A stretch of 61,714 nucleotides of DNA, counting the filler, from Hausera hauseri (taxonomy: Eukaryota), in the NCBI GenBank assembly GCA_046269625.1. It is 11 parts of 11 records of this genome, joined end to end, with 100 filler letters (N's around TTAATTAATTAA, not from the genome) between each part and the next. Parts side by side here need not be neighbours in the genome. Positions count along the whole stretch, not along the records: positions 27,944 to 33,576 come from JBJURY010216855.1; 10 more parts are not named here. One strand, written 5' to 3'. Below the pieces are notes generated by a model that saw nothing but the letters and a program-made list of their open reading frames with translations, ran no database searches and had not been told where the DNA came from. The translations under genes and the position numbers were made by a program. The stretch's first letter is position 1. The number at the start of each line of letters is the position of its first letter. Of this stretch, positions 6,551 through 56,669 are shown one piece after another.

Positions 6551-6554
6551 CACA

Positions 6555-7091
6555 ATGGACATTTTCGCGAACCAATTGTTGCCCAGCAAATTCAGGAAAG
6601 CGACGATGTGAAGAAGTACATTAAAGAATGTAATAAATTCTTTAGATATATGAACACCTCAGTGGCGAAGCGGGAAATCATGGTTGAATGCCTCTTGGAG
6701 GAAGAAGCAAAAGAAAGATACGAATCAGTAGATGCGAAGATAACGGGATATCAAAACCGACTACGAAAGACATTCACCCAACCCTCAATTCTGTGCAAAG
6801 ATCTGAAAGAAGCGCTCGAATACAGAATGAATGGAGCGAAACCGGATGCCTACTTCGAGGCAATCGAGAAACTGTTGCAAAAAGTTATGAAATACGAATT
6901 TTCATGCTAGAATCTAAAAGAGGAAATATTGTTCCAATGCTGTAACAATAGAGAGATGAGAAGAGAGATATGCCTCAGCGACAAACGAGACGCAGAAACA
7001 ATAAAGGAGAAAATACGGAAAATACATGAAGTAAATATTAAGACAGAAGAAATCAACACGGCCAAGGAGTATCCAGGGATCGGTAGAAGAA
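6555..7091 (+). pseudogene. gag: Ty3/Gypsy gag, 5' half
   Basis: Begins just after the PBS; ORFs 6608-6910 and 6929 onward in one frame split by TAG; runs into base 1 via the overlap. Confidence 0.75.
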
Positions 7092-27843: not shown

Positions 27844-27943
27844 NNNNNNNNNNNNNNNNNNNNNNNNNNNNNNNNNNNNNNNNNNNNTTAATTAATTAAN
27901 NNNNNNNNNNNNNNNNNNNNNNNNNNNNNNNNNNNNNNNNNNN
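27844..27943. other. Artificial contig linker
   Basis: 44N-TTAATTAATTAA-44N. Confidence 0.99.
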
Positions 27944-28495
27944 AGCCTTCGATCGTTTTCTAATGGTATCAGCGTTATAATTTCAATACAACTTCTCCCA
28001 CTCTTGAATCCCATTGACCTCACAATCAGCTGGTTGAGTATTATTTAATCTAATAACGTCTCATTCATTTGTTGTCTAGTAGGGATCACTATTGATCTAT
28101 AAAATTTGGTTTTCTGGCATTTGTAATAATCTCCTTGTCTCTTTATGAGTGTAAGGTATATGTAATGGACACCTGAACCTTGTACCCTACACTGTGCTTG
28201 ATTGGTATCTGAGTGAAACAAGCAGTTATATTGTCACTCGTTGGGTTCTTTTTTATTATCATACCACGGTATTATTTGTATCCCCATTATATATGGTGGG
28301 GGCATCCGTTCCGACATGCTCCAGTTCATCACTTTCTGACCTTTTTCTGAGTATGTTGGAGATTTTTCATTAACGGGTCTTCTGTTATGGTCATTGCGTG
28401 TCGTATTTTTGCTCTTTCGATCTCTTGCTTCTCCATTTGTCCAATTACTCTAGGGAGTCAAAAGATGATGCTTAATAATAGGCACTGCATTAACC
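27944..28495 (-). pseudogene. Signal-peptide-led ectodomain after integrase, homologous to the C7 FN3-like protein
   Basis: WLMQCLLLSIIF*LPRVIG, then WSMSERMPPPYIMGIQIIPWYDNKK..YNCLFHSDTNQAQC..HYIY, aligning with WIKDWRPHPDFGRFQIVLYDVATKK..NCDFEPGDDTQFC..HVYI. Confidence 0.6.
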
Positions 28496-31400
28496 AATGA
28501 GATCTGTTGGTTGGATCTACCTTGTTTACTTTTTCATTTATACTTAGTAATACTTCTTTTTCACCTTTTCTTAACTCAGTTTGCTTGGCTGCCGGCTTAC
28601 ATCTATTAACGTAAACCTTCAGGGATTTATCATTTTTCTTTAGACAAATATTTGGTAGATCCACTTTTTCTACTTTGTAAGTCCCTTTATATGGCCTGTC
28701 TAACTTAGATGTTTTGCCCTTTTTAATTGCCGGTGAGTACAACATTACTAGGTCACCTATTTTAATTTTTGGCTGTTTAGTTTTTTGGTCGTAGTATCTT
28801 TTATATTTCAGTTCGTAGTCTTTCTGGTTATCACCAATTGTTTTATATGCCAACTAGAGGCGTTCCTGCATTAACTGTTTATAATCTTTTACCTCCATTA
28901 TGTGTCAAACTGGCTTCACATTAAAATCTAGATCAATTGGTAATCATGCATCCCGTAAATACATTAAATAGAAGGGTGTCTCCTTGGTAACCTCATGGAC
29001 CGATGTCCGATTTACGAAAACACATGCATTTATATATCCGTCCCAATCGTCTTGTCTAGTGTTTACTACCGTTTGTAATTTCCCTTTTAAATCTCAAATA
29101 TATCTCTCGACCATTTAATTATTTTCTGGGTGCCCCTGCGTGGATCGTAGTTGTAATATCTTCAAAATATCATATACGGACTACATTACCGTTCCCGTTA
29201 AATTTGACGCTTGATCCGTCAAGAGGATTCTCGGGGCTCCATAATTAAATACTATATTTTCCACAAATTTTTTGGCGATTGTGTCGGCCACGACTCATCT
29301 AGTAAAGCAGTCAATAAAGACTAGGATGTATCGGTTTACATTGCAGGTTAATGGTAGTGGCCCCGTTATGTCCATTGCAGTAAACTCAAATGGTGCTGGG
29401 GGTTATCCCATACTTTGAGAGGTGCTTTGTATTTCGTTCCCGTGTTCTTCCGGGTAGCACATCATTTGCAGCTATCGCACCATTCCTGCACATCTCTCGT
29501 TATGCTTGGCCAAAAGTATTTCCGTTTTAACTTATTAAACGTTTTATTTGCTGATTGGTGTCTACCAAATAATCCGTCATGGTACCAGACCAGGTCCGTT
29601 TTGATGAACGAAGTATAAGAATCCTTCTTTTTCTTCATACGTTTCACTGAATCGGGCCAAATGACGAGCTAGCTCCTTATCAGCTGGTACAGCTTTGTCC
29701 TTTGTGTATTTTCTAATAGTGCTTATTTCAACATCCTCGTTTTGGTTTGCCTTAATTTTCTCTACAGATCCATCCATGCTCCATATGGCTGCAACTACTG
29801 CTTTTTCTGTATTTGATTTACTAGGTATTCTGGATAGGTAATTCGCATTGGCGTTTCGTGATCCTGGTTTATATTGGAAATTCAATGTATAGGGCTGTAG
29901 CTTTAGAGCCCATCGTAGTAGTCTACTGTTGGGATTTTCATGCTGTTTTAACCATTGAAGCGGTCTATGATCTGTATAGATTACCACAGGTTTATTTTCA
30001 CTAATGTAGGGCGAGAATACCTCCAAGGCAAATATTACGGCCAATAATTCTTTTTTAATTACTGCGTACTTCTTCTGATGCTTATTGAGTTTTCGAAAAG
30101 CGTAAGCTACTGGGTGCTCCTTACCATCTTCACCCTTTTGTGACAACACTGCTCCTATTCCATAATAGCTTGCGTCTGTTGCCAAAATGAATGGATTGGT
30201 CATATCAGGATAGATTAGAATAGGGGCAGTTAACAATCTGTTCTTCAAATATTCGAAAGCTTTTTGACATTCGTTTGTCCAAATGACTTTGCCTAGATTT
30301 TCCCGTAATAGTTCGTACAAAGGTTTTGCGATCTTACTAAAATCCTTTATAAATCTGCGGTAATAATTTGCTAGACCTAGAAATTGGCGTAGTTCTTTGA
30401 CTGTACCTGGCTTTGGAAAGTCTCTTATTTTTCCTAAAAGTTTATCTTGAGGTTTTACGCCATATCTATCTACTCGATGTCCTAGGAAATCTACTTCCGC
30501 TTGGGCAAACGAACATTTCTTTGGGTTTATCTTTAGACCTATTACTTCGCATCTATCAGAGGTCTTGCAGATCCCTTAGATGTTGTTGAAAATTTGATTA
30601 TGCTATTAATACATCATCAATATATGCCATGGCATGTGGTGCATCTAGCAGCAGAAGTTCTGTTCCTCTCTGAAACGATGGCGGACCGTTTTTAATCCAA
30701 ATGGCATCCTATTAAATTCCCATAAACCTTCTCCAATTGAGAAGGCTGTCTTTGGTTTATCCTCTTTTACCTCCACTTGCCAATAACCTTTTTGTAGGTC
30801 TATCTTTGAAAATATTTTCGATCCATGTAATTTATCTAATATCTCATCAATCCTTGGTAACGGATATGTATCCGTTTCTGTTATTTCGTTTAAAGCTCTA
30901 TAATCTATACAAAATCCCATGGTCCAATCTTTCTTCTTGACCATTACTACTGGAGCCGTCCATGGTGAACAACTTGGCCGAATTATCTTATTTTCCTTCA
31001 GTTCTTTTATTATTTTTCGTGCTTGTTTTTTATCGTATGCCAATCGATACGGTCTTTTCTTGATTGGTTTGTTTTGTCCATCATTTAACTTGATGGTATG
31101 TTGTATTATCATCATTATACCCAAGTCATAATCATTTAGTGCAAATCGACTGTTATTCTTTTCCAGCAATTCGATTAGTACCTTCTTTTCCTCCGTTAAA
31201 ATTTTACACTTTTGTAGCTTCTCATCCCAATTGATACTTGTAATTTTATTTCTTTTTTTATCTTCATTTAGTTCCTTCTTTAATTTCCTTAACATTAATT
31301 TTTCTATTTTATCTACGTCCGAAATTGTGGAACATACCTCTTGTCTTATTACTTCCTTACTAGTCGTTACTTCTCCCAATCTCATTCTTTCGTAATGTTT

Positions 31401-31990
31401 TTTCTTTACTTGCCGTATTACGAATCCGCAAATGGATCTTTCCATCCCTTACTTTATCTATGTGAGGGGCGATTAAAATATCATACTTCTCCATCACTTG
31501 TGGGAATGGTTCAAAGTAAATGACCTTCGATAATGCTTGACTTTCTATTTTTCCGGGTACTATTACCTCGGATCGCGGTGGAATTGTAATATCTTTCATT
31601 AATGAAACCACTCTTCTGTCTTCTCCGAAAGTCTTCAGTTGACATGTTCTCAAATTTATATAAACATTTTTTAATTGGTTCACTACATCACATCCAATTA
31701 AGATCTCGTTAGTCAGATTATCGGCTATCCTTATAGTGTGTTCTACAATCTGTTCACCAATCTTAATTTTGGCATCTAAGACCATCTTAATTTCTTCTGT
31801 ACCGAATGCTCTTACGTTCACTAAGGTAGTTATCGGTTTTCGTAATTTCCTCTTTAACTCTTTCGGCAATTGGCTCCTTTCCATTATCGTTGTTGTAGAT
31901 TTAGTGTCTAGTAAAGCCGTCATTGGGTATCCATTAATCTCTATCTCTATTTCTGGCCTTATAGATGATTGTTGTTCATTTTTATCATCA
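28496..31990 (-). pseudogene. pol: Ty3/Gypsy pol (PR-RT-RNaseH-IN), disrupted
   Basis: ALLDTKS protease, SPWTAPVVMV, FCIDYRALN, DLQKGYWQV, FNRMPFGL, YIDD, TDASYYGIGAVLSQ, YTDHRPL, MDITGPLP, IKIGDLVML..YKGTYKV. Confidence 0.93.
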
Positions 31991-33576
31991 GCTTTGCACG
32001 TAGACTCGTTTATTGGGCATTACATTTTCGTCAAGATTTCGTTGCATCTGTTGTATTTGATGCGGTGGGTATAATCCTGTATGCACTAAATATTGTGGAG
32101 CGGAGGGGTTCATTAATGGTTGTTCGTTATACAACTGTCCATGGTATTCATCTGCTGGATCTAGGTGAGGTAAGTCAGTTATTAACTTGTGTCTATACTT
32201 TGGCTTTCGTGTCTTAAGCACTAGTTGTTTAATACCAGTTACTCGACTGTATTTTGTTTTTGGATTTACTTGATTATATTTAGTATCATTATCATCAGGT
32301 ATACTATACGGGGATTCTTTTATGTCTTTGCTTTGTAATATTTTCCTCTTCCATCGTGCATCATGATTTGCTAGAAAACAACTTGCTACTGCTGGTATCA
32401 CAGCTATTAGGATTTTCCATGAGCACCCTACTGCTGCATGTATTCCATATGCCTTACCTAGTGCCGTAAATACTGTCCGTATGGCGTTGATAATGAAATA
32501 TAGCTAGAAAACCGGAAGCTGCTTGGCCGAAATATAAAATCTTTTCCATAACGTTCTTCGTTACTTTCTTCAAATAGTCCTTACCCATTAAGTTTATCCA
32601 TTGTGGTGATACTTCACCATTCCACATTACTCTCCTAGTTAATTCTGTTATAACTCTGTCTTTGGGGAAACAACAACATCCGTCGATAATCCTCTAGATT
32701 TTGTTGCGTATAGATTTCTCCCTGAGATATTCCTGTTAATGTTTCGAATTTTTGATTCCTCTGCAAATTGATCAAACTTAATGTCTCCGGTTTGGGCACT
32801 GGCTGTCTCTTTGGCATTCTAATCCATTTGCCATTATCGGTTTTAAACATTGGTGACATATTAAATGTATAATTGTATAGAGGAGTAGGTTTCACGTTAA
32901 TATCTAATAGTATTCTGGTTACTGGAATCATATTTCTTGCTTCTGTATAGTAAATTACCGGTAATTCCATGGTACATTCGTCCGTTGGCCTAATTGACAC
33001 TTCTACCTTCTTGCATTCTATCGTTATTAATATCTCGCCCATCACTCTTCCGATAATTCCGTCACCGAAGGGTATCACTGGCGCTACCATGTCTCGATTT
33101 GTTATTACCAGTGCCATTTTATTACGCATTATTCCGTAGTTCAACTTACATTGGTTCATTACAATTTCTCTATACAGACTTATAATCTCTTTCCTTACAT
33201 AGTTAATCAGAAAATCGATCTTATTGTCGAAATATTGTGTTAGCTTGATATCTTTCTTATCTATCTTAGTTTTCGCCCGGGGTATTTCTTTTCTTGATAA
33301 GAAAATACCCTTATAATTAGTTTTTGATATTTCTTTGCTACACTTATTTGTTACTCCAGTGATTTTAAATCTCATCATTTCTTCTGGATTTTCCGAATAT
33401 ACAGTTGTAGCTACTTCAGTCTACTTGACTTCCTTTCTTCCTTCTTTGTATGTCGCTGTTTCTTTTTCGGCCGTTTTTCCTACTGTTTTTTTTTCCTACC
33501 GTTTTTCCTTCTTTTAACAGTGTCAACTGACATTTGCTTGCCGATGTTTCCCATGTAATCTTCGACTCTCCAGTAT
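31988..33576 (-). pseudogene. env: Envelope glycoprotein of chuvirus-G / herpes gB-like (class III) type, C-terminal part
   Basis: YFDNKIDF..LYREIVMNQCKL, GEILITIECKKVEV, CTMELPV, PVTRIL, EIYTQQNLEDYRRMLLFP; membrane region FGQAASGFLAIF..YGIHAAVGCSWKILIA; two frameshifts. Confidence 0.8.
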
Positions 33577-33676
33577 NNNNNNNNNNNNNNNNNNNNNNNN
33601 NNNNNNNNNNNNNNNNNNNNTTAATTAATTAANNNNNNNNNNNNNNNNNNNNNNNNNNNNNNNNNNNNNNNNNNNN
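33577..33676. other. Artificial contig linker
   Basis: 44N-TTAATTAATTAA-44N. Confidence 0.99.
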
Positions 33677-33762
33677 GTATGGCACCTTGAGGTGCGTTCT
33701 CTTGATTTTATTCATAAAACATTTTACCCTATTGAGGAGATTGGCTGTGAATCTGGAAGAAC

Positions 33763-34437
33763 TCAACACACTGGGTATGTGGTTTTCCCATTGTCCAGCG
33801 TCCATTTCTCTAGACAATCCCGGCAATATTTGTGTCTACAATCTGGATTATCCAATACTACATATTTTTGTTTGAAGTCCGCTTCACATACTGGACATTC
33901 GTTTTCTTCTTTCTCCCATTTTTCGTCATCCAGGTCAACTTGTATTGTAAGTTCGATGTGCCCGAACACGTGGCCATCTTCGTCTTTATACATATATCCG
34001 TATATCATCTATTTAGTGTTTATGGAACTTTTCTTAGGGTCGCAACCCACGGGTACTAAGGTCCAATCGCTGATAGTGTCTCGATCTAAGTCGGGAATCT
34101 GAGCAGCTGATTGATATTTGTGGTATTGCCTTTTCAAGAGTGTCTTCACAAATTTATCTACGGGTACTATTAGTCCACCGTTCCCTTTCGATTGGAAAAT
34201 CGACGCAATGTATTTTCCTATCTTGGGATTTTCCCAAATATAAGTATTTTCGTAAACTTCCCTCTCAGGTATTATCTTAACGAAAAACATAGCCTCTTTA
34301 ATCTTTTGTTGGCTATAATATTCTGTAGTTACCAACATTTTTGGGTAGTCGTCGGCTGTGGCGAAATGTACGTTATCATTGGGATTTTTCTTCCGTAAGA
34401 TGTTTATTTCAGTTATTTGTCCCTTCGGTTCATTCAC
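33763..34437 (-). pseudogene. C3HC4 RING-finger-containing accessory ORF of the C7 element
   Basis: CPVC..CRHKYCRDCLEKW..YPVC (one Cys lost); 34009-34437 and 33763-34008 are in the same frame, split by TAG. Confidence 0.8.
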
Positions 34438-34685
34438 TATGCTTCCGAATTCTCTGGTTTGGGTCGATGTTTGGTTATTGGAGGATATCGGTTTCTCTTC
34501 TCTGACTAGCAGTTCTTTGTTTGTCTTAAGCGTTGAATTCTCTTTCGCTTGTCTTAGATTCGCTTCTCGGTCTATTTTCCCGCTCTTATTCTTTTTCTTA
34601 AACAGGTAGGCAATAAGAGAGATTTTCCTCTTATTTGTATATTTCGTAGGTTCGATTCCGGTTTCCTTTGACCAACTTCCCTTTT

Positions 34686-36080
34686 TCAGATATTTTTCGG
34701 AATTTCTCGTATTCTGAAATTATTGTGCGAATCGGCGGTTTTTGTTGGCTTCTTATGACTATAACTCGTACTGGGCTTATTTTCCATTTTTGGTTTCTTA
34801 TTAAGGCTCTCCGATTTGAGTCCTTGTATGACTATTCGATAATTTAATTTTTCTGCGGTTTTGACATTTCTAGGAGGAGAGTAGGGACGAAAATGTCTTC
34901 TGTGTCGGGTACTTAATTCGTCTGGTTTAGTGGAATGACGTAAATTTTGGTTTGGGTTATCCGGAATCCATTCGTGTTCCCATCTTAATCCGGCACTTAT
35001 GTCTCGTAAATACTGGAAACGTTGACTAGCGGTTAATAATCGGCTTATTTTAATATGTTCTCCGCTCATCGATTCAATCATCAATTTAAGTCGGGCTTCT
35101 ACAGTCGGTGGTAGATACCCCTTCTTTTCCTTAAGGTTTTGTTCCATCCGTTCCATCACTATAGGCTGGGTTTCTATTTCTCTTACTCCGGCTACGTGCA
35201 TCATAGGTAGTCTCAGTTTTCCCATGATCATTTCTACTTGATAACCAACTACGATACATCCATAGAAGCAGTGTATCAATTCTCCTCGGGCTCATTCTAT
35301 GTCTTTTCCATGAATCAATTGTTCTTTTTTTACTCCGGTTACTTCTGCATAGGTTTTCCTCACCATTTTCCTCGGACTGATCGTTTTTGAGTAAATTTCA
35401 ATACCGTCAGCTTCTCCTATCGATACTTCGATAGGAATATAATTCCCATCGTCTCCTTCTCCATGGTTTAATGCTATGATTCTGAGATTTCTCGCACCTT
35501 GCACTAGCACGAAGGAATGTAAATGTTCATCTCGGTCTCTTTCTGTTGGCTCTTGGTTAAATTTTAGAGGAGGCAATTAAATATACGATGCTTCCTCATA
35601 GGTCACTTCGATCATCACTTTAAGTGGAAACGCAGCCACCCTAAATTCTAACTGGCATTTGTAATGGTAGAAATCTCCACTATTGAGTTTGAAGGTACTA
35701 TATCGGTTTTGTCTTCCTTGAGAGGAATCCCAGGCTTGATCTTTAAGCCGATAGTAAATTTCTTCATCTGCCAGATGGATAAATATATTCTGATGATAAA
35801 CAGGTTCATATTGAATCAGCTGTCGCAACGCGTAAGCTTTCGCGTCCTTGTCGTTCCTCATGGCATATAGACGGACTACTCTGTTCTCTTCGTTGATGCC
35901 TTTTAGATTGTTGGGAATTTCACTAGTTCTTTTATATTCTACTATAATTTTTCCTTGGAGTTCATTATTGATCTGCCTGAACATCGATTTGGATTGGGGA
36001 ATCAGTACGGTGACATACCGTTGTATAAAATCGTCGACGCTACGTCAATTATTACTTCCTCTGGTCGCCATTTGTATACT
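34686..36080 (-). pseudogene. Accessory ORF with degenerate DEDDh (REX4/ISG20-like) exonuclease domain(s)
   Basis: IIALNH..EVSIGEADGIEIYSKTISPRKMVRKTYAEVTGVKKEQL..GCIVVGY..LRL parallels VALDCE..RVSIV..G..Y..VKP..V..T.VSGI..L..G.ILVGH..L.L; three ORFs in one frame. Confidence 0.6.
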
Positions 36081-36185
36081 TACCAATCTAGCAAACAACA
36101 AATAAAGGTTAATCCTAAAACAAAGTATAGTTTCAAACCAAAACCAGTTCTTTGTTTGATGACAGAATAACCTGATCTGTAATTC

Positions 36186-37600
36186 TCAGGTTATTTTATC
36201 ATAAAGATACTCTTGGGGTTCCAGTTTCCATAACTCCCATTCTGTAGTTTTAGAACGCTTAGAGTGACAATTTTTGGAAACTGATCGAAAAATTACAATT
36301 AATATAATGAGAACAAACGTTGATAGTACAACAATGGATACGATCGGTAAAGTGGTTAATCTCATTGGTGCTTGTGTGGTGACTGAAGTTGTGATTTCAT
36401 CGTCTATATTTTCATATACGTGCGATTCTGCACGAATTTCGTCTAAGGTACGCAATGTAATTGTTTGGTTTTGTTTATTCACTCCATATATTTGTACTAT
36501 ATAATAGGATTGTGGTTTTAGCAAATTGCATTCTGTGTGATAAGTGTTTTTAAGTAATGTTACAATTTGATTATTATACGTTGTTCGGCAGCTTATGTGT
36601 ATATCGTAATTTAGTTTTTCTTCTACAAAGAACACAATCTTAGATCGATGCGCCAAATATTTGATAGGTATAATTTCTAATTCTCCTTTAGGCACACTGC
36701 TTAATGTAACGAATCTCTCAGTGGTACTAACTCGAGTAGTCAGCTTCTCGATTGTCGTTTCTACTGGAATCCGCCATATTCTATTCTCCGGGTAATAGGT
36801 TCGCAAATGTTTGCTCGGTTTATTCGTTTGTACTTCATATAGGTCAAATTTTATTTTGAATTCTTGGTTTCCTGGTAGTTTGCAATATGGATGTTGCACA
36901 CCGGCATGAACAGAGCAGTATTTTATGTTCGGAGTTTTCCGTTTACTGCTACGAAAACGATGCTAATTTTCTGACTAAGAGTTAATCCTGTTCGAGCATC
37001 TACTTTGATGCATTGTTTCTCCTTATTTATTAAGACCTCTTTCATGTTTTCATCTAATAGCCTTATATTCGGGTCGGTAGATTGTAGCATTTCGTCGGGC
37101 TTCCTTCCGAATCTCCCGGGCCAATGGGGAATAACCAGCTGAAGTTGTGGGTTTACTTCGATATAGACTTCTGACGAGTCTGGTAAGTATAGTCGATAAG
37201 TAAGGATGTAAACATGTCTAAAATCTATGTCGCAGAACTGGGTATCATCTCCAGGTTCAAAATCACAATTTTCCGTCTTTTTTGTTGCTACATCATACAG
37301 GACAATTTGAAATCTTCCAAAATCGGGATGCGGTCTCCAATCTTTAATCCAACACATACAGAGTCTGGCGAAAAACAATGAATCGTCATTTATTTTAACA
37401 ATTTAGTGTCGTCTTGCTTTTGGATCTCTTCAGCCGTTGGTTTCTTTTCCGCTATGGTATTTTTCGCTTTTAGTCCGCTTTTCCGTATTCCGTATACGTC
37501 TCCTAGTGTAGATTTATCGTCCCACCACTGAGTTTGTGTTTCTGGAATGTAAGAAGCAATTAGTGATAGTGCTAAGACTATCTGAACGTATGATATCGGT
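36186..37600 (-). pseudogene. Type I membrane protein with FN3-like repeats, starting in frame with the integrase C-terminus
   Basis: Signal-like ISYVQIVLALSLIASYI; repeated C-x9/10-C units; FN3 motif NLLKPQSYYIVQIYGVN; Thr-rich stalk; TM IVSIVVLSTFVLIILIVIF; short cytoplasmic tail. Confidence 0.65.
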
Positions 37601-40544
37601 CTAGTAATTATTGAAGAAGTTTTTGTCTCGTGTTGGCGTAAATTGTAACGTTTATTGGGCCGCATCTCCGTCTTAACAACTCTTTGTACTAACACGACTT
37701 CTTCTTTTCTATTTTTGTTAATGTACACCGTAACTGGCGTAACTATGGTAACTTCATACGGTCCTCTACCTGTACGAGTCAGTTTTAATGGGGTGCATTT
37801 CTTGGCTACTGGATAATGTACATAAAGCCAATTTCCTTGTTCTAAATCATGCAGTTTCGCTTTTTTATCATACTGCTTTTTAAACTGTTCTTGATATCCT
37901 TGGGATAACTCCTTATCAATTTCGCAACGATTTTGTAGTCGCATTTGTAATACTTCTGCAAAGTTTTGTTCTAAATCTTCGGGATTGACAGTATATGGCG
38001 TCATTCCTAAGTCTGTGGATAACACAGCTTCACGTCCATACATCATGGAAAATGGCGTAAATCCTGTTGCCAGATGTGGGGTGGTATTAATCGCGAATTG
38101 AGTTCCTTCTAAAAATTTGTCTCAATCCTTTTGATCCTTAGCTACTACTGTTGATAGTATGCGTATGACAGTTGCATTCATTCGTTTAACCATTCCATTA
38201 CACTGAGGGTGATACGCGGTAGTAATTAACCGTTCGATTTCGAATGTCTTGGTAATCTTCTCGAAGAGTTCACTGGTGAAATTTCTTCCTCGGTTTGTTA
38301 ATATTTGGTTTGGTGGTCCATATCGGCAGATGATTCTTCTTACTACAGCTTCGGCCAAGGTTTCTGCCTTTTGATAAATTTGCGCTATCAACTCGACAAA
38401 ATAAGTCAATCGATCGATACAAGTCAAAAAATACTTATTGTTTTTATGAGTTGTAGGTAACGGTCCTACAATGTCCATTGACATGGCTTGCATAGGTCTG
38501 TCTGTTACGGCAATTGTTCTTAGCTCTGCCATGTAATTCTTTGTCTTTTTTGTTTAGTTGCACATACTTCACAAGCATTTACCCAATTCTTTACATCGAT
38601 ATAGATACTGGGCCAGAAGTATTTATTCAATATTCTTTCCAACGTCTTTTTCCATGATTGTGCCCGCTAAATAAAAATCATGTTCTGCCATTAAAACTTC
38701 GGTCCGTAAACCTTTAGGAATAACTATTAATTTTCTCCCTTTCCGTTCGTAATACAAAATGTCTTCACTACTCTTGTTATTCAAGATACAGTAGTTGTGC
38801 CCATGTCTGTGTAAGTGTTTCTTTAGTTGTCGTCCTGTCGGCATAATATTCTTTTTAGCAAATTCTATAATCTGATGGATAACTTTATCTTTTCTTTGTT
38901 CGACCGTGATTTTAATGGTTTGTCTGTTGTCAATGGACTTTGACGGTCTATTAATTCCTCAAGCTGAGCTTTCTTTATTACAGTGATTGCACTTGTCTTA
39001 GTTCTTAACCTGGATAGCGCGTTGGCATCAACATGTTTGTTTCCTGGCTTATAGCGAAATTCAATATTGTATCTAAAGATTTCTTCGATCCATCGGTTAA
39101 CCCTGCATGTCAGGTTATTTGCTTGACGTTTTAGAGTCGTGACGGCTTTGTGACCAGTGACAATTATAATTTTCTGCCCGTACACGTAAATGTTGAAGTG
39201 TCGAAGCGCTTCTTTTACGGCTAGAGTTTCTAATTCACTAACGGAAAAGTTTTTCTCGGCCTTTTTCAGAGAACGCCCTCCATAAGCAATTGGGTATTCT
39301 AATTCGTCGTCTTCTCTTTTCTGTGCTAATCCATATCCAATACCTTCCTGACTGGCATCTGTCTTAATTATAAAGGGCAATTAAAGTCTGGGTATCGTAA
39401 AACAGGTTCATTTGTTAATATCTTCTTCATTTCGGCAAACGCTTTCTGTTCGACATCTGTCCACTTCAATTTAATTCCTTTATTAAGCAAACAATATAAG
39501 GGTGCATTTATTTTCGAGTTGTCTAGCACATAAGTGGCATAATATCCACAGAGACCTAGCCAATTCCTTAACTCTTTCTGATTTTGTGGCTCCATGCAAT
39601 CTGATATTTTGTTCAATAGTGAATTATCTGGTCTTGATCCTCCTTCTCCAACTATATGGCCAAGGTAGGATACTGCATTTTTAGCTCATTTACATTTCTT
39701 TGGATTTAATTTTAATCCGGCTTGTTCTAGTCGCATTAATGTGTGCCCAATAACCTTCAGATGTTCCTCATCCGTTCTTGACGCTATAATTACATCATCT
39801 AAAGACGCAAAAGCATGATCTAGTACCATCAACATTATGTTCATCATTCTACTAAAAACAGCTGGTCCAGTGGTAATATCAAACGGCATTTACATTAAAT
39901 TCTTAGATACCATCGTGTGTTTTGAACGCTGTTTTATATCGGTTTTCATCTTCAATTTCTACTTGCCAATATCCGGACTGTAAATCCATTGTGGTAAACC
40001 GTTTTGCTCCTGAGAGCCTGTCTAGAGCCTCTTTTACTGATGGCAGTGGAAAAGAATCTTTCATTACGAGATTGTTTAATGCTTTGTAGTCAGTGCAGCA
40101 TCGATGTTTCGTAGTACCCTTCTTTTTGACCATAAGGATCGGTGAGTACCAAGATATATAACTGGGCCTAATTATATCGGCCTTAAGCATTCGCTCGACT
40201 TCCTTTGTTATCTCGGGCCTTAGTGAATGCGGCGGAGAATACCATTTCAACATCTTTTGGTCTTCAAGATCTATTTCTTCATTCGAACCAGGCTTTTTCT
40301 TAAGTGGAATAGTCAACTTGAATGCTTTTGCCCTGCCAATATTTTCGTCGTCCTTAGCAATAATCGACTTAGAGACATAATAATTCATAGAATTCACAAT
40401 AAGATTCGGGGGAAAACTTAGTTTCAACAAGCGGTGGTAATTCAGGATACTTCTAAGGTTTTTCTTTAATAGTTATAGCTGACACTCTATATGTATCTCC
40501 CAATGTTGTATAAGCATGAAGCTTCACGGGGGTCGGTGCACTAT
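37601..40544 (-). pseudogene. pol: Ty3/Gypsy pol (RT-RNaseH-IN), disrupted
   Basis: SPILMVKKK, DYKALN, DLQSGYWQV, SLDDVII, TDASQEGIG, ELETLAV, MDIVGPLP, TAYHPQCNGMVKR, GRGPYEV. Confidence 0.93.
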
Positions 40545-41878: not shown

Positions 41879-44793
41879 AGTAGTATTATAAGGCAATCAG
41901 TGATTTGGCGCGGACAATTGGTTGCGCAATAGGTGGATTTAACAAAAAACTTCGATGGCGTAGCCAGTCGGGGTAAGGGGGAGATAACGTTTTTTGGAAA
42001 TGTTTTAAGGGGGAGACAAATATTGTATATTTTTGTTTTTAATTAGGTAATTAATTAGGTAATTATGTGTTTTAACTAAATAATGTGTGTAATTTTATTT
42101 AAATAATAGTTATGTATAATTATAGTTGATAAAGTTGTTTTCCGAGAGTGCTGGGGTCACCCTAGGTGCTGCGGTCGGCCGCGTCGTCTGGGCGTTCGCC
42201 GGTAATTAAGTAATTGTTTTTAATTAGGTAACTAGGTAATTATAGTATAATTATGGTATAATTATGTTTTGTAATCCTTGATAAGAGCGGGGCAGACATA
42301 CTGTCAGGGTAAGGGGAGTGACAAAGTCTGACTCAGCGGGTTTTTTATTTTTTCATCATCATCATTCTTTTTTATTTTTCATCATCATCATTCTTTTTGG
42401 TAACGTAATTTCTTTTTCTTTAGTTAGACGTGAGACGCATTATGGGGTAATGACGTGTTATGTCTTTGTAGTAAGTTAGGTACTAGATGCTGTATATACC
42501 AGCATTCTGTTTGATGACGTCAGCATCTTGATGTCGTAATTTCTTTTTTTTCTTTAGTTACGTGCAGTAAGGGGTGAAGGGGCTGTGGTGGTAATGTGTC
42601 TTTGTCTCGGGACTAATAGTGTTAGGTCTATGTAGCGTCAGGTGCTGTGTCGTATATGGGTAGTGGGTCAAAGAAGGGTCATATTTTGATGTTAATGTCG
42701 CGGTTCTCAAGGGCGATGATGGAGATTTAAGTCGTCTTCTTCGTGTTTAGGCCATGTCGATCATTAAAGGGGTACATTTTTTCTGTTAAGGGCGTGTTTC
42801 TCAAGTGTGCTGGTAGTGATTTAGGTCGTCTTCATCGTGTTTAGGACAGGTCGGAGCATTAAAGGGGCACATTTTTTCTGTTAAGGTCGGGTATCTCAAG
42901 GATGCGGGCGGTGGTTTAGGTCGGATTCTTCGTGTTTAGGGCCATAGAAGGGTGATATTTTCTGTTAAGGGCGTGTTTCTCAAGGGTGTGGGCGGTGGTT
43001 TAGGTCGGCTTCATCGTGTTTAGGGACATGGAAGGGTCATATTTTCTGTTAATGTCACGGTTCTCACAGGCGATGATGGAGATTTAAGTCGTCTTTTTCG
43101 TGTTTAGGGCCATGTCGATCATTAAAGGGAAACTTTTTTCTGTTAAGGGCGTGTTTCTCAAGGGTGCGGGCGTGGTTTAAGTCGTCTTCTTCGTGTTTAG
43201 GGACATGTAAGTGGGGTATTTTCTGTTAAGGTCACGTTTCTCAAGTGTGATGGTGCTTTAGGTCGGTTTCTTCGTGTTTAGGGATAAGTCGGAACATTAA
43301 AGGAAAACTTTTTTCCTGCTAAGGTCCTGTTTCTCAAGGATGCGGGCGATGGTTTAAGTCGTCTTCATCAAATGTTTAACACACAAATTTAGACGGTTAG
43401 ACGAATGGCTTTATTCACGTTGGTCGTACAGGTGTGTTTTGCTTGAGCGATAGCAAAACAATGGATGGCTTTACCCCTTTGTACGAGGACGAACACTGGA
43501 ATGTTCCACTCGTTGCCGGATAAGTTTGGTAAGAATAATATTTCTGTGTTTTGTTTCGTCTTTCTAAGGAGCGGGCCGATAAATTATTCGTACAGTGAAA
43601 ATTGTTGTTTGAATGTTGGTAGATTTTCACAGTTTTACTTAGGAAAGATAACAACGGTCGGTTCGTCTTTATTAAGGGCGACCGGATAAAAGAAATGTGA
43701 AAATTGTTATTGGAATGTTGGGATGTTGGTAGATTTCAAAGTTTTACTTCAGAAAAATACAACGTTAAGATACCCGTTAGAACTAAAAAATTGTGTGCAG
43801 ATTGACTGGAAGATCAGCCAAATATCAACTGTTTGAAGATGGCCGACTTGACAAAACTGTAAGTAACAAAAATTTCTCATGTTGTAAGTAACAAAAAATG
43901 TAAATTTCTCAGGACACTACACATATTGTATAGTTTGTACTTTCTCGAATGACTAAAACATGTAGTATTTGCCTTATGTTAATAAAATGAACTTACCAGT
44001 GTTATAATAATAAAATGTGTGTGATAAACGTTACAAGATTCAGCCGCCATTTTTGCTTCCACAAAACTCTGTCCTCTGACTTTACCTTCTGCTGTCACAT
44101 GACCCCGCTTCCTGTTCTGCCCGTTCCGCTTGACTTTGTCCTTGCGGCCGCTTCCTACGCCTGACTTCACCCATCTTTCGTGTACACACATACGGCACTC
44201 TGCGCCTCCTGTACTAGCCTGCAACGTCACCTGACTCTGCCCCCTACGCCTTCACCCGCCATCTTGCCTTTGCCGACCCTCGACGCCTGCGACGACTAAC
44301 TCTGCCCCCTTGCGCCTCCACATGACGACACCTGTCTCCCCCTACATCCGCCATCTTCCACTGTCTTTGTCCTCGCCTATCCCCGCCTCTCGACAAGTGT
44401 GTGACATTCCCCCGACCTCTAAATAATTTGCTATATTTCTTATACATTACAACCTCTGCAAAGGAACATGATGATGAAAAACACTAAGTGGGCCGAAACA
44501 AGGTAGACATTAGGAAAACTATATTGGAGTATAGAGCCCCACAAGGAGAGAGGACACCGAGCCCTGTCACTCCTAACTGGTCATAAAAAGAATGATGATG
44601 ACGAAAAACCTGCTACTGGAAGGTCTTGGTCACTAAAAAAACAATAACGCCTTATAAAATGACACTACTACACACGTCCCTCGCTCCATCACCCCAACTA
44701 ACTAGCCATCAAAAGAATGATAATTAAGATCTATAAACATTGTGCTATTTGTTCCAGGCGCAGAACGACTTTTCGCTCATCTTATAACATGGT
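41879..44793. mobile_element. Non-coding element bounded by long degenerate inverted repeats (possible non-autonomous Polinton-like or foldback element)
   Basis: Inverted similarity between 41879-41990 and 44675-44793, and between 42316-42372 and 44585-44640; left end AGTAGT; internal tandem array. Confidence 0.4.
42681..43380 (+). repeat. Minisatellite, about 8 units of about 83-96 bp
   Basis: Core ttttctgttaagg..ttctcaag..ggtttaggtcg..cttcgtgtttagg repeated; long and short variants. Confidence 0.9.
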
Positions 44794-47465: not shown

Positions 47466-49383
47466 ATGTTCTTGTGCCACCAGATTTCCAAGTGTCTGAT
47501 ATCGGTTCGTATAGTGAAGATGAAGAAAACATTATTAGAAATAATGATGATGTTTCCTCAGATAAAACAGAGGCTTATTCCATTCATGAGGACTCAACAC
47601 CATCAGATGATGACTCGTCCAGTAGATAAAGCACTTACAGGTGGACAAAGGGTAGGTTTCGATCAAGCCAAACAGTGCACGATGATGTCACTTTCTGCAA
47701 GCAGATAAACTATCATCAAAGTCAGACTACTTTCTGAAATTATTTACACGACAGCTGATTACAGAAACTACTGAGCATACAAATTTTTATTCAATTCAAG
47801 TATCACAAAGTTGCATAAATGTGTCAGATGCAGAAATAAGTGTTTGTGGATATACAGTTGATGATGGGGAATGTTGCCGTGCCATCTGTGACAGACTATT
47901 GGAACACATTGTCGGTATGATAACATCAAGGATTCTATGTCACTAAAACGTTTTCACAAGACAAAGAGGTACATCCACATTAGGGGCAATACTGGCTCAT
48001 CTGATGATGCACTTCTAAAAATGCTCACTGTGCTTGAAAGCATCAGAGCTCAGTACAATATCATTGAAAATGAAACCAGTATGTCAGATGATGAAATGAT
48101 GATACCATACAAAGGACAAAAAGCTGTTGCTTTGCGGCAGAATATTCCTAGCAAACCCGTGAAGTGGGGTTTTAAAATATTTGTACGTTCTGGTGCTTCA
48201 GGGAATGTGTATGATATGTTGGTGTATACTGGAACAACAACATTTAATGGTATTCAGTTCGGCCCAGCAGCAACCAATCTCGGAGTGGGTGTTTTTGGGC
48301 AACTTTTTCTGCTCATTTGACCTTACTCGTCATCTAAAGTAAGCAGTACACATTGACAATTTGGGTACCTTGCGCAGTATTAGCATTCGCAACTGTCCAA
48401 TTGAAGATGAAAAAACACTACAGAAGCGTGGACGAGGAATTTTTGATTGTGCTGTGGATATACGATGGGTTGACGATAAAACTGTAACTCTTGCCAGCTC
48501 ATTTGTTGCAGTGGAACCTGTTGGGATAATGAAACGTTACAGTAAGGAAACCAAAATCAAAGCAGATGTACCATGTCCGGCGACTGTAACTCAATATATC
48601 AAACAAATGGATGGAGTCGATTTGTCGGATATGCTTATTGCACTATATCGAACTCCAATAAAGTCAAAAAGGTGGTATCTTGGGATTTTTGCTCAGTTGT
48701 TGGACATTAGTGTAGTCAATGCCTGGCTACTGTACAAATGAGATTATGCTGGCTTATTTGAAAACGAAGAAGCTACCAGCAACATCCCTCGTATGTTGTC
48801 TTTGAAGGACTTTAGGTTACAAATTTCATCTACCTTCATTAATGCAACTAAAGTTGATCAGCGTGGACAAAATAGTTTCGCAACTACGCATGTTCCAAAA
48901 GAGACGATTTTCAAAGCAGCCAACACCAGTGGGAGATGATGCAAGATTTGATGGTGTGGTCATGACATTGTAAAGACTGTGAAGGGTAGATGCCGAAATT
49001 GTACGAAAGGACAAACCAGGATGAAGTGCTCGAAATGTGGGGTACGGTTGTGCGTTGCACAGAGCTGTAATTGCTTTGTTGATTACCACTATAAAAAGTG
49101 ATCGACAAGTAGTATGCGACCGCTGTGAATGTGTCTGTATATCGTACAATAGTGGACTAGTTGTGTGGTATTTGTGTTACACGATGACTATTTTGAAATT
49201 TATGATTACTGCGTTGCTATTATTCGTAATTTAGGCAATGTATCCAAATGGATGCTCGCTGTAAAATCCATGTTCTTGTGATACAAAAGAATTGAATCAG
49301 AGATATTTTTATTTTAATATGTTCAAAACAAAAATGTGTTAAAAATGTTCGTGCATATGTAAGTCTCTTTGCCACGTTAAGGG
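47466..49383 (+). mobile_element. piggyBac (PGBD3-like) transposon, disrupted
   Basis: DEMMIPYKG, KPVKWGFKIF, GTLR, WVDDK, MDGVDLSD, NAWLLY, RFDGVGH plus C-terminal Cys cluster; right end AAGGG followed by TTAA at 49384-49387. Confidence 0.9.
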
Positions 49384-49977: not shown

Positions 49978-50009
49978 TTTTTAATTAGTTTTTGATTTGA
50001 ATTTGGACT

Positions 50010-50126
50010 AAAGAAATAAATCGTTAAATTTTGGTTTAACTCTGTTTTGCCGTTTTTCTTATATTACTCTCCTATGGAATTATTAGAAATTGTCATATAT
50101 TCAAGCGAATTACAATGGTGTCAGAA
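50010..50126 (+). repeat. LTR-end-like direct repeat plus tRNA-Leu-type PBS (second copy 50457-50570)
   Basis: About 93 bp nearly identical to 50457-50549; followed by ..TACAA TGGTGTCAGAA (50116-50126). Confidence 0.65.
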
Positions 50127-50169
50127 TAAAACTTCTGAGAATGTATTCGCCCATTATCGAATAGCTGAG

Positions 50170-50400
50170 AATTTATTCAACAATTTGGCTGTTCTTTATG
50201 GAAAACAGAAAAAGTTTCAAGAAGCTGAAACACTTTGCAAAAGATCTCTTGATCCGTGAGCAACTTTTGGGACCTGATCACCCAGATGTTGCCAAACAAC
50301 TGAATAACTTGGTTTTTCCTTGTCAGAATCAGTGTAAATACTCAGAAGTGAAGAACTATTATCATCGGGCGATCGAAATTTATTCTAATTCGTTTGGTAA
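50170..50400 (+). pseudogene. KLC: Kinesin light chain TPR fragment
   Basis: NNLAVLYGK..EAETLCKRSL / IREQLLGPDHPDVAKQLNNL..CQNQ.KY.EV..YY.RAIEIY; one frameshift; no intron. Confidence 0.88.
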
Positions 50401-50560
50401 AGAATCAGATAATCAGTTTTCTTTTGATTTTAATCATTACAAAACAATCCATTTAAAAAGAAATAAATCGTTAAATTTTGGTTTAACTCTGTTTTGTCTT
50501 ATTCTTATATTACTCTCCTATGGAATTATTAGAAATTGTCATATATTCACATGAACAACA

Positions 50561-51726
50561 ATGGATGTAGGCTTCGAATCCATACATACAGATATCGTCG
50601 GTCCTCTTCCTCTTGACAACGGTCATCACTTCATTTTGACCATGATGGATCGCGCCTCACATTGGCCAGAAGCTGTCCCTTTACGAAGCACTAACACGGA
50701 TACTATAGCCGAAGTTTTCATCCGCATTTGGATCAGCAGGTTCGGATCTCCTAGATTTATCATGTCGGACCAAGGCCACCAATTCCAGTCCAATCTATTC
50801 AAATCACTTGTTAGCAAATTAGGAATCCATCATATACACACTACGCCTTATCATCCACAATCAAATGGTCTTATTGAGAGGTTCCACAGAACACTGAATA
50901 CTTCGCTAAAGATCCTCGCTAAATCCAACAGTAGTTGGACTGTTCTTCTTCCTTTGGTTTTGCTTGGTTGGCGGAACACTCCATCTACTTCCACAGGATG
51001 CTCACCTACCCAAGCATTATTTGGAACACCTGTTCGCTCCTTGTTCGAGTTAACCGCACTAGATAATACGCCTACAGATGAAAAGATTAAAGTAGCACAG
51101 GACCATTTCATTGAAGTCAGTAAAGACTCATTTTGTAGAATACTACACAATTATAAAACATATTTACCTGACGACTTGTATTCTGCACAGTTCGTTTGGC
51201 TGCGTAATCAAACACCGTGTGGCTTTCAACCGCAGTATCTCGGGCCTTATAAGCTAGTTCAACTATTTTCTCACAACGCTATAATCCTTAAAGATGGAAA
51301 AGAACTAACAGTCCATATAAATAATGTGAAACCTGCCTTTTTGTGGATGACACCTCTCCAACTGAAACTTCGACGAATTTTCTGACTCCTAGATTTCCTT
51401 CTGTTTCTACTCCTGACTCTACTCCTACTACATTTTCTCCGGTTCCTGATTCTGTTCACACATTCACTCCACCTACTATTCCTACCCCTACCACTCCTTC
51501 ATTTTCTCCTCCCACCTTCTTACCAACAACTACTTTTCCTTCTCCGAGTTTGTTTCAGCAAGACACCACATTTAACGCGACAGATTGTAATATCTTCCCT
51601 TCCAAAGAATTTCAGCAAACGGAGACTAAAGAAAAGAGATTGCACAAAACTGTCACTTTCAGCAAGTACAGTAAGGAGAGAAACATCGAAGGCATACAAC
51701 GCCTGGTAAACACCAAAACCGAATAG
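50561..51726 (+). pseudogene. pol: Ty3/Gypsy integrase core with S/P/T-rich tail
   Basis: DIVGPLP, WPEAVPL, SDQG, TTPYHPQSNGLIERFHRT, YLGPY; frameshift into the tail; homologous to 19195-20840. Confidence 0.92.
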
Positions 51727-51828
51727 TAAAACCACAAATCTGTCACATAAGACCACATAGTCAGTTCAAACTATTTCATTCTACGTTCGCTTACTATCTC
51801 TTTTATCTTTACAGTCACACCTCGCCAC

Positions 51829-51841
51829 GGGGGAGGGGGGG
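51829..51841 (+). promoter_or_regulatory. Polypurine tract
   Basis: gggggaggggggg downstream of the integrase tail. Confidence 0.7.
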
Positions 51842-52009
51842 TAATTTTATGATCAACGAAATTATGGTTCCGTTTTTATTTCATTTTTTGTGTTAAGTGT
51901 AATTACAATTTTATCGTGACTTCTTTTCCATCTGCTGACGAATTGTTGTGTTTTGGTGTTTTATTTTGTCGTGCAGTGCTCCTCGTCGGGACTACAATCA
52001 TTTAAAACG

Positions 52010-52185
52010 AATCAACATTTTACCGAAAAGAAAATATTTATTGAATTTTACCAAAGTAAAAATTTTAGGAATTTTCCTCAGTGTTCTACCAAAACAGATA
52101 TATACATCGAACTTTGATGTCGACATGAATCAACGTTCTACCGAAAAGAAAATATTTATCGAATTTTACCAAAGAAAAATTTTCT
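52010..52185 (+). repeat. Short direct duplication (about 56 bp, period about 118 bp)
   Basis: atcaac..taccgaaaagaaaatatttat.gaattttaccaaag at about 52011 and 52129. Confidence 0.75.
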
Positions 52186-52342
52186 AAACTGTACAGAAAT
52201 ATATATCGTGTATATGGAGTAATGATTTTATGGACAATTGATTTTTGTTATGATATTTGAATTTGTAGTGTTTAGAAGATATTAAATCTCGTTATCCCAT
52301 CTTTTGTTGTACATTTTGGATATAATAACCAAAAAACTACAT

Positions 52343-52352
52343 TGGTGTCAGA
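52343..52352 (+). promoter_or_regulatory. PBS-like TGGTGTCAGA after an ...ACTACA LTR-like end
   Basis: Complementary to the tRNA-Leu(CAA) 3' end; ATG follows at 52382. Confidence 0.55.
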
Positions 52353-52539
52353 GAATTTCCTACAATTTTGTCAGAACCAACATGCTTAACAGAAGTTGCA
52401 GTAAAGAAACCACAGTAGCTCCATTTAATAGATATCAGTTTTTAAAGATCATGTCAAAAATTAATTTTATTTCTGATGTTGAAAATATAAATATTCGTTT
52501 TAAAGCCATGCTTCCTAATAGAATACTCTTATTGACAGA

Positions 52540-53514
52540 CACTGAATTTAACGAATTACGACAAATTATTACTAATCCGGATACAAATAAACCGAAAAAA
52601 TTTGGGGATATTGAAAATTCCTAAATTAGCAGAAACACTGGAGATTTTGGCAAACGAACCGTATGCAATAAAAATGGATCTTTGATTCAAACGGTCGTCG
52701 ATGAAATCCGTAATGCCAGTGGTATCTTAACAGTAGGAGACTTTGAAAAGTATGAAACAATTTGGCGAAAACCTGCGGAAGTTGGATTAATAGATAATGA
52801 TGTTTTATATACTTTGCCACCTCCATCAAGTGGAATTTTAGTTGGGCTGATACTCAATATTTTAGCAGAATATTCATTTGATTCTAGTTTCGTCCATGAT
52901 TGTAAAAAAGCCGGTTTATTTTACCATCGTTTGGTTGAAATTCGTTTACGGACAAAGATCAGCTCTAGGAGATATGGATTGCGTAAACATCACTAAAATA
53001 ATGGCAGATCTCACATCGGACAAATTTGCCCAGTGGATAAAATCTAAAATATCAGACGATAAAGTCCATCCAGTGAAATACTATGATCCACAGTTTGAGG
53101 TGAAGAAGATCAGGGAACCTCTCACTTCAGTCTTATTTCTCCTGACTGTGATGCAGTCTCCGCAACATCTTCAATTAACTACTTATTTGGTTCATTGGTA
53201 ATGGGATCGAAAACCGGAATTTTGTACAATGATAAAATGGATGATTTTTCTACACCGAACGTATCCCATGTTTACAAATTACCCCCATCGTCAGCTAATT
53301 TTATCCGACCGTATAAACGTCCAATGTCACCGATGAGTCCTAGAATTATCGCGGATAAGAATGGAGATGTAAAAGTCGTTGTTGGTGCCGCTGGAGGTAG
53401 CAAAATACTATCGAGTACAGCACAGGTTGCGGCCTTGTCTACTGTATTAAATTTATCAATTAAACAGTCCATTGATTCACCCAGAATAAGTCATCAATTA
53501 CTTCCCAATGTTGT
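52540..53514 (+). pseudogene. GGT: Gamma-glutamyl transpeptidase fragment (large subunit end plus small subunit)
   Basis: LRQIITNPDT..GD, LAETLEILA, PPPSSG, YHRLVE, GILYNDKMDDFS, NFIRPYKRPMS, GAAGGSKI, PRISHQLLPN; frameshifts; no intron. Confidence 0.92.
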
Positions 53515-53516
53515 CA

Positions 53517-54425
53517 TACTTCCCAATGAATCGGGAGTGGTTTTGTCCCTCGAAAGTGATTCCGATGACTATCTAATATTAGAAATGGCGGGCAGATTAC
53601 TCCGCAGTATGTACAATTGGGGAAGTTGTTACAAGAGAAAAGTTTCCGAAGGTAGTTTCATAAACGACGGATGGTGGCATTTCGTTTCTGTCGTTCGGCA
53701 ATTATCGGATTCACATTCATTTGCGTTTCGAGTCGATGGTCATCCCGACGGATCAAGAGCTCATTTACCTGTAGACATTGGAGGTGTGAATTTCAATTAT
53801 TTTGGAAATATGTATCTAGGTGAATACAAAGAAAATGAAACGATTATGACTCTTGACAAAGAAAAACCAAAATCAGTTGAAGGTTTTGATGAATGCATAT
53901 CATCATTTTTGGTAACCAATATTCTCACTGAAAATGAATCAGTGGAATACAAAGATTTTCTCAAACTAGTCACTGCAAAATATTATATATATTGCTCTGA
54001 AGATATGTACAATCAAGAAAATCAGTGCAGCAATGAAGACTGCTATTTTCAAGGAACTAGTATTCAACAGTGGAAAAAAATGCAATTCGATTGTTCAATG
54101 ACGTCTTTTACCGGTAACCGATGTCAAGATGTGTCTTCAACTGTACAGTTTATGAAATATCCCAGTTATTTTATCTTGAAGTACACATACAACATTAGTT
54201 ATTCAATTATTAAAATTGTATAGGGATTTCAAACAAACTCAGTGAAAATATCTAAACTAATCGTTCTCAACGACGAAGCAGCAAAAGAATTTCTCGAAAT
54301 TGGGATATACATTCAAATTAGAGCCAGTTTCATTCAACTGAACCGTAACACGGCGGATAAAACATATTATTTGTTAAAAAATCGAATAAATGTCGTCGAT
54401 GGATTTTACCATATTGCGAGATGTT
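53517..54425 (+). pseudogene. NRXN: Neurexin fragment (LNS-EGF-LNS)
   Basis: DYLILE, INDGWWHFVSVVR, MYLG; EGF C..QG..IQQW....DCSMTSFTG..C.D; GFQT, DGFYHIAR. Confidence 0.85.
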
Positions 54426-54640
54426 ACAGAAAGAAGAGTGTTATTGTTCTTTATCTGAGTAATGGGACGTTACAAATAAACACTTTCAACGATCACACAA
54501 AACTTGTATTATGTCCATGTTTGTCCGCCATTACATACATTGACGGTACCAAAACTTTTAGGACAATCCGAACGGATTATCTGCGAATTTCGGGAAAAAC
54601 TTTCGAAATGCATCAGAGATTGGAGTATTGCTTGAAGATT
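54422..54640 (+). pseudogene. PLK1: Polo-like kinase polo box 2 fragment
   Basis: SVIVLYLSNGTLQINTFNDHTKLVLCP..SAITYID..FRT..RLEY. Confidence 0.88.
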
Positions 54641-54649
54641 ATCTCACTC

Positions 54650-56029: not shown

Positions 56030-56669
56030 CTACGTGGCATTTCTGTTCTATGTGGCCGTAGATGTAAAATTAGTACAGGATCACACATCATGCGCAGACG
56101 TCATGTGCATCTACCTTGCCTATAAACGAGGGATTTAGTAAGATCGAACATTATTGCAGTGTTGAGAAGAATAGTCCGTTTGAAGTACGGAATGCTTTAC
56201 TCTATCCGATGCCCGATCATACTCCATTGTACAATACGACCATACATATAAACCTTTTTTCTGCATGATGATCAATTGGAAGGAAATATTCTACATTTCT
56301 AGCATCGGTAAAAACAATTTGCGAGCTTGTATGTTTAATAGTAAAGTTACAAACGGACGAAAATAATCAACCAGAAATTATCGTCTTTTCTCGTTGATTG
56401 TCAAACCCAGTATGACGGATATAAACGAGGTTTTGTTGGAGTAGTGAATAATAGAACTGTTTCGATTATAAATCTCCATGTGACGCTGTTAAGTATCAAA
56501 CACGAATTTCCGAATTGGCGATTTATGACCATTCAAACTTTTCTGCGTTTTTCCCACAAGGAATTACCTGAAACACAAAACTTACGGTGCGCCGTTATTT
56601 ATTTGATAATTTTCCAACTTATGCCCTTTTCGAATCATAATTTAACAACATTGGTCGTTTTCTGTCAGG

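Follow-up and report, generated by a model that had tools for sequence, protein, structure and literature searches.

The stretch of DNA analysed here (hereafter, the window; 61,714 nt from Hausera hauseri, assembly GCA_046269625.1) is made up of 11 contigs; each of the ten junctions between them is filled by the same artificial 100-nt spacer, of the form N/TTAATTAATTAA/N. The element under study lies on the minus strand of a single 5.6-kb contig (27944-33576, JBJURY010216855.1), where the C-terminal part of an envelope (env) gene is followed by protease (PR), reverse transcriptase (RT), RNase H (RH) and integrase (IN) (Table 1). The contig end at 33576 cuts the env ectodomain, with the env N-terminus and any gag lying off the contig. 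All genes of this contig are broken by stops and frame changes (at least seven of the latter between 33576 and 28500, plus many stops), and the copy is dead.

Table 1. Features of the env-pol contig and its immediate surroundings (positions along the window; H2 and H3 refer to the polyprotein layout given in the text)
Feature	Position	Strand	Basis
Artificial contig spacer, 100 nt	33577..33676	.	Sequence inspection
Second artificial spacer	27844..27943		Sequence inspection
Env ectodomain, C-terminal part, predicted chuvirus/gB class III type	32538..33576	-	PF24664 and tblastn; truncated by contig end
Env membrane anchor (H2), then a second, weaker hydrophobic helix	32369..32551	-	Anchor motif, PF24664 558-627
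Open tail/linker, env anchor to protease	31988..32368	-	Open frame, 171-aa tail
Aspartic protease (~31959-31669) and ~100-aa spacer domain	31360..32019	-	RVP E 4.1e-9; 219-aa PR frame
Reverse transcriptase (YxDD at 30624) and RNase H	29826..31448	-	RVT_1 E 2.5e-10, RT_RNaseH E 5.4e-38
Integrase: zinc finger, core, C-terminal part	28512..29593	-	tblastn with P0007 1845-2218, 40-41%
Signal-like hydrophobic stretch (~28496-28461), probable broken start of second membrane protein	27944..28496	-	Position of H3 in relatives
Another decayed gypsy element, with RT-RH-IN, a signal-like stretch, an FN3-like ectodomain with membrane helix, accessory ORFs and a RING finger	33763..40544	-	Separate contig 33677-40544

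Since the other contigs carry remnants of a DDE transposase, a non-LTR RT and gypsy-like elements alongside animal-type gene fragments, the window is most likely repeat-rich animal DNA. In the region 1-7091 the first 77 bases recur exactly at the contig end, and direct repeats 87-90% identical (3632-3905 and 6231-6498) lie close to the zinc finger of a gypsy-like integrase. Either an LTR element, circularised or in tandem, or an overlap in the assembly would fit this picture. Degenerate tandem repeats with a unit length of 84-95 nt occupy 42665-43378, and a broken DDE_Tnp_1_7 transposase, of piggyBac type, is found at 47892-48741 (+). On the plus strand of 49978-56669, pieces of a TPR protein, of a gypsy-like integrase, of a gamma-glutamyltranspeptidase in frame with laminin G, and of a Polo box stand side by side without clear introns, possibly as a chimeric retrocopy. 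An N-terminal fragment of MMS19 is present at 60467-61093 (-).

The preliminary description of this locus had called the glycoprotein a chuvirus/gB-like envelope of class III, and both the window itself and the modelled fold of a relative agree with that assignment. A 261-aa segment (32635-33420, minus strand) matches positions 256-497 of 653 in the Pfam profile PF24664 (Monjiviricetes_fusion) with an E-value of 3.7e-36, and 31988-32503 (minus strand) matches positions 558-627 (E 6.8e-4), corresponding to the membrane end, after which the tail is open. In tblastn, the relatives P0001, P0002, P0008 and P0154 cover env from 33574, two bases short of the contig end, to 32538 in three frames. The ectodomain is interrupted by frame changes at ~33500 and ~32660 and by a stop at ~33422, and the membrane anchor H2 is split by another frame change at ~32503. 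The anchor motif (32528) and the second hydrophobic helix (32419) form a pattern common to all 13 relatives examined. Identity to the window fragment is 72% for P0002, 38% for P0003 and 36-41% for the polyproteins P0004-P0009. A profile built from 87 env relatives and compared with the PDB gave 37 matches (E up to 1), every one of them a herpesvirus gB (best E 0.0014). The AlphaFold model of P0003 (748 aa, pLDDT 83.3) matched gB structures (Foldseek E 3e-13, TM about 0.3-0.4) and chuvirus-type G (E 2.5e-43). On the PF24664 match and the modelled fold of P0003, to which it is 38% identical, the window env is assigned to the class III (gB-like) type as a predicted fold. In the env tree the window sequence groups with envelopes of polyproteins, at a support of only 82/97. 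Relatives of the window env were found neither in the viral contigs nor in the metagenome contigs searched, and the phage records searched gave no match.

The pol region shows the Ty3/gypsy order PR-RT-RH-IN (Pfam, tblastn), in a decayed state throughout. The active-site motif of the protease is altered, and the ~100-aa spacer that follows it aligns with the relatives (tblastn). The frame of RT and RNase H, which are 47-50% identical to those of env-pol polyproteins, is interrupted by frame changes and stops, as is the integrase, where the P0154 HSP (29417-28521) alone contains 8 stops. No dUTPase match was obtained in the contig with Pfam at E 0.1. The RT-RH tree has no starred branch and holds no named gypsy, BEL/Pao or retrovirus references; the RT-RH query found no relatives in the viral contigs searched.

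The adjacency of env and pol, the central claim of the preliminary description, is present on the contig as described: the PF24664-type env runs directly into PR-RT-RH-IN and lies upstream of pol within about 2 kb, an arrangement shared with GAG-ENV-POL errantiviruses. The frame of the env tail overlaps by 32 nt that of the protease, which opens at 32019; frame -2 holds both the body of env and the protease, and frames -3 and -1 hold the anchor and the tail (tblastn). The frame changes between env body and protease are most likely a result of decay. The distance from anchor to protease amounts to 206 codons, compared with 123-383 residues in 13 relatives, two pairs of which share a cluster. 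Because a blastn comparison of the contig with the whole window returned the self match alone (no repeat within the contig or shared with the rest), the gap between env and protease can be taken as free of any LTR-like repeat, again in agreement with the earlier account.

A homologue search with the env fragment among 1.84 billion representatives produced 565 hits, 150 of which were listed. In eight of the 13 best hits (P0002-P0014, E <= 3.2e-32) env is followed by a protease within one ORF; P0011 ends just after a protease-like motif, and the remaining four end inside env or its membrane region. Among the 150 of 565 hits listed, a pol domain follows env in ten and precedes it in none, a count obtained from a protein search that is blind to gag-pol-env layouts; most of the listed hits are either fragments or glycoproteins of ~600-750 aa that stand alone, and their genomic context is not given by the protein. 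Gag features or a CCHC knuckle come before env within one ORF in P0001, P0006, P0007, P0011, P0012 and P0071. The most complete arrangement is illustrated by P0007 (2,627 aa), which runs in a single frame from a zinc knuckle through env-PR-RT-RH-IN and further, while P0008, P0025, P0151 (4,844 aa) and P0154 maintain a single frame from env through IN and beyond. The contig is collinear with P0007, P0008, P0151 and P0154 from env to IN (tblastn), and the same relatives match both the window env (27-42%) and the window pol (47-50%). The ORF of these relatives can be summarised as [gag with CCHC knuckle]-H1-env ectodomain-H2-tail-PR (1 to 6 motifs per polyprotein)-RT-RH-IN-H3-second ectodomain-H4-short tail, where H1 to H4 are hydrophobic segments. 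A search for longer proteins with the env tail found no homologue, which is a weak negative.

Several features of the relatives deserve separate mention. Two to six aspartic-protease motifs are present in P0004, P0005, P0006, P0008, P0009, P0012, P0151 and P0154, and in P0008 and P0151 such motifs also occur after the integrase; P0151 additionally has ankyrin and C2H2 matches. A Bcl-2-like helical region directly precedes the env signal in P0003 (residues 9-70, Pfam E 0.00096, below cutoff), and similar helices just before env were judged by eye in P0001 and P0009. P0007 is filed at NCBI as a hypothetical protein of a Flavobacteriaceae MAG although it is an animal-type polyprotein, probably owing to binning contamination.

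Further copies of the element were assessed by aligning two public runs, X1 and X2 (the latter with a word share of only 0.05), to the contig. X1 yielded 17,455 contig pieces distributed over all 30 bins, mostly 80-95% alike (629 at 99% or above, 2,203 at 95-99%, 6,764 at 90-95% and 7,859 under 90%), and the env-pol family is thus high-copy. One of the 16 listed among these 17,455 pieces (record 7) bridges 31852-32182 over 330 nt with 61 differences and 5 gaps. It is a different copy with the same join of env tail and protease, even if X1 includes the source organism, and it documents the join at the level of nucleotides. Conservation of the env-PR adjacency, which the preliminary description had proposed to examine in other copies, is therefore evident from this diverged copy and from the eight single-ORF relatives among the best 13.

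Taken together, these observations make it very probable that the contig holds the remains of one copy of a repeated Ty3/gypsy element in which env stands immediately before PR-RT-RH-IN, and which, when intact, likely encoded one polyprotein. The same env-pol order could in principle be native with pol reached by a programmed frameshift or a splice at the 32-nt overlap, giving a lower Pol:Env ratio. Many gypsy elements do use gag-pol frameshifts; here the 171-aa tail frame and the 219-aa PR frame are both open up to the overlap, and no intact protein of the same family was found across the junction, the closest relative (P0002, 72%) stopping at the anchor. Against this stand a scan of 31940-32080, in which neither a slippery heptamer nor a Ty-type +1 site was found, and the presence of pol within the env ORF in all ten pol-containing hits among the 150 listed. 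Moreover, the overlap is likely a frame break by decay: six or more further frame changes, along with numerous stops, are spread over the contig, so that one more is to be expected. We regard recoding or splicing at this site as unlikely, though it retains a small share of the probability. The question of splicing or frameshifting raised by the preliminary description finds a likely answer here: the intact relatives carry gag-env-PR-RT-RH-IN as one polyprotein, and pol would need neither.

The case for each of the two other readings that we considered is slight. A single deletion event that joined two gag-pol-env elements standing in tandem, or else a chimera made in assembly, could be suspected in a short contig of a repeat-rich assembly, the more so as a high copy number invites chimeric assembly; but the diverged X1 copy bridges the junction, order and spacing agree with relatives from several clusters, and single proteins match the env and pol parts of the window alike, which together leave this reading with very little probability, and the refuting case named in the preliminary description is largely excluded. 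A chance insertion of an endogenous chuvirus G fragment just upstream of a gypsy pol, outside the element, appears equally improbable. Such fragments are common beside gypsy pieces in arthropods (PMC10084718), and the fold of the P0003 model is closest to chuvirus G; however, the closest relatives of the window env are retroelement polyproteins (31-41%), stand-alone G proteins mostly reaching 20-31%, and many copies in X1 cover the env and pol parts alike.

A second membrane protein in the position after the integrase, also claimed for this locus, is clear in the relatives, whereas the contig itself retains a signal-like stretch only: this stretch (~28496-28461) coincides with the end of the integrase frame, and ~500 nt remain before the contig ends. 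X1 record 1 spans this part (28328-28778). In all five relatives that run past the integrase, the same frame goes on to encode a second protein with signal, ectodomain and membrane segment; each has H3 and a later hydrophobic segment (H4), H4 being weakest in P0025 (Kyte-Doolittle). The post-integrase regions of four of the five share a C-x2-L-x-P-x-T motif and a YxPP tail motif. The ectodomain appears FN3-like in four of five, at weak support: FN3 atlas scores of 0.87 and 0.89 serve as leads only, the Pfam NDNF FN3 family matches one of the five segments (E 0.0028), and a five-sequence profile gave 21 PDB matches (E 0.02-8), 19 of which come from proteins with FN3 domains. The window post-IN piece had neither a Pfam match nor a match to the FN3-like profile, and its comparison with pieces of the neighbouring contig and with the five relatives gave no score above shuffles (against 36926-37402, 760 of 1000 shuffles reached the score). 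A likeness in cysteine spacing that had been noticed by eye in this piece was rejected, the alignment scores being not above shuffles. A homologue search with the P0154 post-IN region among shorter proteins found none, a weak negative. In P0007, P0008, P0151 and P0154 (four of four) YxPP lies in the C-terminal tail shortly past the last membrane helix; a role in sorting or budding is conjecture.

The neighbouring contig shows, in broken pieces, a layout of signal, ectodomain, membrane helix and tail; the FN3-like ectodomain with its helix lies at 36186-37402, and the protein shares the cysteine and L-x-P pattern of the relatives. Its RING finger (33763-34008, minus strand) matches zf-RING_2 with E 5.5e-8, and several ORFs on the same strand have no assigned family. 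A single-sequence fold of 36189-36962 reached a pLDDT of only 41.5, and the structure search with it (best Z 5.2) was uninformative. As a whole, 33677-40544 (-) is reminiscent of giant elements, whose 3' ends are rich in cargo.

The layout of the relatives suggests how such a polyprotein might be processed. From Kyte-Doolittle hydropathy alone, H1 and H3 would serve as internal signal sequences, while H2 and H4 would stop transfer and anchor the chain. The polyprotein would then span the ER membrane four times, with Gag, Pol and the last tail on the cytosolic side and both env and the second ectodomain facing the lumen. Cleavage by signal peptidase after H1 and H3 would release Env and the second protein, and the protease(s) of the element would free the enzymes. 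The second helix after H2 (hydropathy 1.0-1.7) would have to be amphipathic or re-entrant, as a crossing would put Pol on the wrong side of the membrane. Pol would then be a cytoplasmic extension of Env, produced with it in a 1:1 ratio, and in this membrane-tethered form could enter budding particles with no need for splicing or a programmed frameshift. We tentatively propose, as a possibility well short of an even chance, that the family is built as a flavivirus-style four-span membrane polyprotein, with a gB-like fusogen before Pol, an FN3-like type I attachment or regulatory partner after the integrase, and Pol packaged as the tail of Env.

As for known systems, the order was presented as atypical in the preliminary description, but it is already in print (PMC6431247; PMC13524379), and the finding as written is ordinary. 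The planarian giant gypsy element Burro/GYPSM1 (Jurka 2007; Grohme 2018; Arkhipova and Yushenova 2019, PMC6431247) has an env that matches fusion proteins of mononegaviruses and lies in frame, with gag/BCL2 before it and PR after it; it is called the first case of an in-frame env between gag and pol (PMC6431247). Its internal region reaches up to 25 kb (>30 kb in all), with a dUTPase-like domain between PR and RT and accessory BIR, MATH, ankyrin and RING domains, and decayed copies with stops and frameshifts occur in Dugesia japonica (PMC6431247). Our element shares with Burro the env-before-PR order; env is in frame in the relatives and broken in the window, where its body and PR have the same frame. 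The weak Bcl-2 match before env in P0003 and the ankyrin in P0151 are further likenesses, while the RING finger of the neighbouring contig belongs to a different element. On the other hand, the post-integrase membrane protein and the repeated proteases of the relatives are not mentioned in the Burro section of PMC6431247. The comparison is by description rather than by sequence, with 5.6 kb of the window element visible. By analogy, we take the contig element to work like the Burro-type gag-env-pol polyprotein elements.

GAG-ENV-POL errantiviruses with an HSV/gB-type ENV are known from Nematoda, Bryozoa and Platyhelminthes (Chary and Hayashi, eLife 2026, PMC13524379), with up to 215 copies in Schmidtea, and are reported as non-monophyletic (PMC13524379). 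They have the same gene order, env class and Ty3/gypsy pol as the element described here, and the end of the Schmidtea C1a domain I-II row resembles by eye the window env at 33400-33290 and P0001/P0007 (a TNYKGI.LS-like motif), a likeness that makes a flatworm host plausible; the nematode env rows of the eLife supplement look, by eye, unlike it (PMC13524379). The portions of PMC13524379 considered contain no treatment of env-pol frames and no second surface protein. The nematode non-canonical ERVs of Sacco et al. (2022, J Gen Virol 103:1739), cited in PMC13524379, have env and pol flipped. The Anakin BEL/Pao elements of mosquitoes carry a chuvirus glycoprotein (Dezordi 2020, PMC7642597) and are similar to our element in having a chuvirus-like G within an LTR element, but with a Pao backbone instead of a gypsy-type pol; PMC11410931 served as background only. 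For the post-integrase membrane protein, the repeated proteases and the four-span topology, no description was found in the literature searched; Grohme 2018, Sacco 2022, supplements and Repbase may hold one. A continuous gag-env-pro-pol ORF is reportedly present in the nematode ERVs.

The value of this locus lies in the anatomy of its family. The single ORF explains how pol is produced and predicts that Gag, Env and Pol are made in equal amounts; in the relatives it ends in the second membrane protein. In herpes- and paramyxoviruses, attachment and fusion proteins are separate. If the second protein is indeed a partner of the fusogen, cell entry in this family would be more similar to that of herpes- or paramyxoviruses than to that of retroviruses. 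Planarians would lend themselves to a test of this idea, as knock-down of smedwi-2 raises the level of BURRO1 RNA in them (PMC8532177). Should the four-span reading with two surface proteins prove true, the family would represent an LTR retroelement that uses a two-component machine for entry and is processed by signal peptidase.
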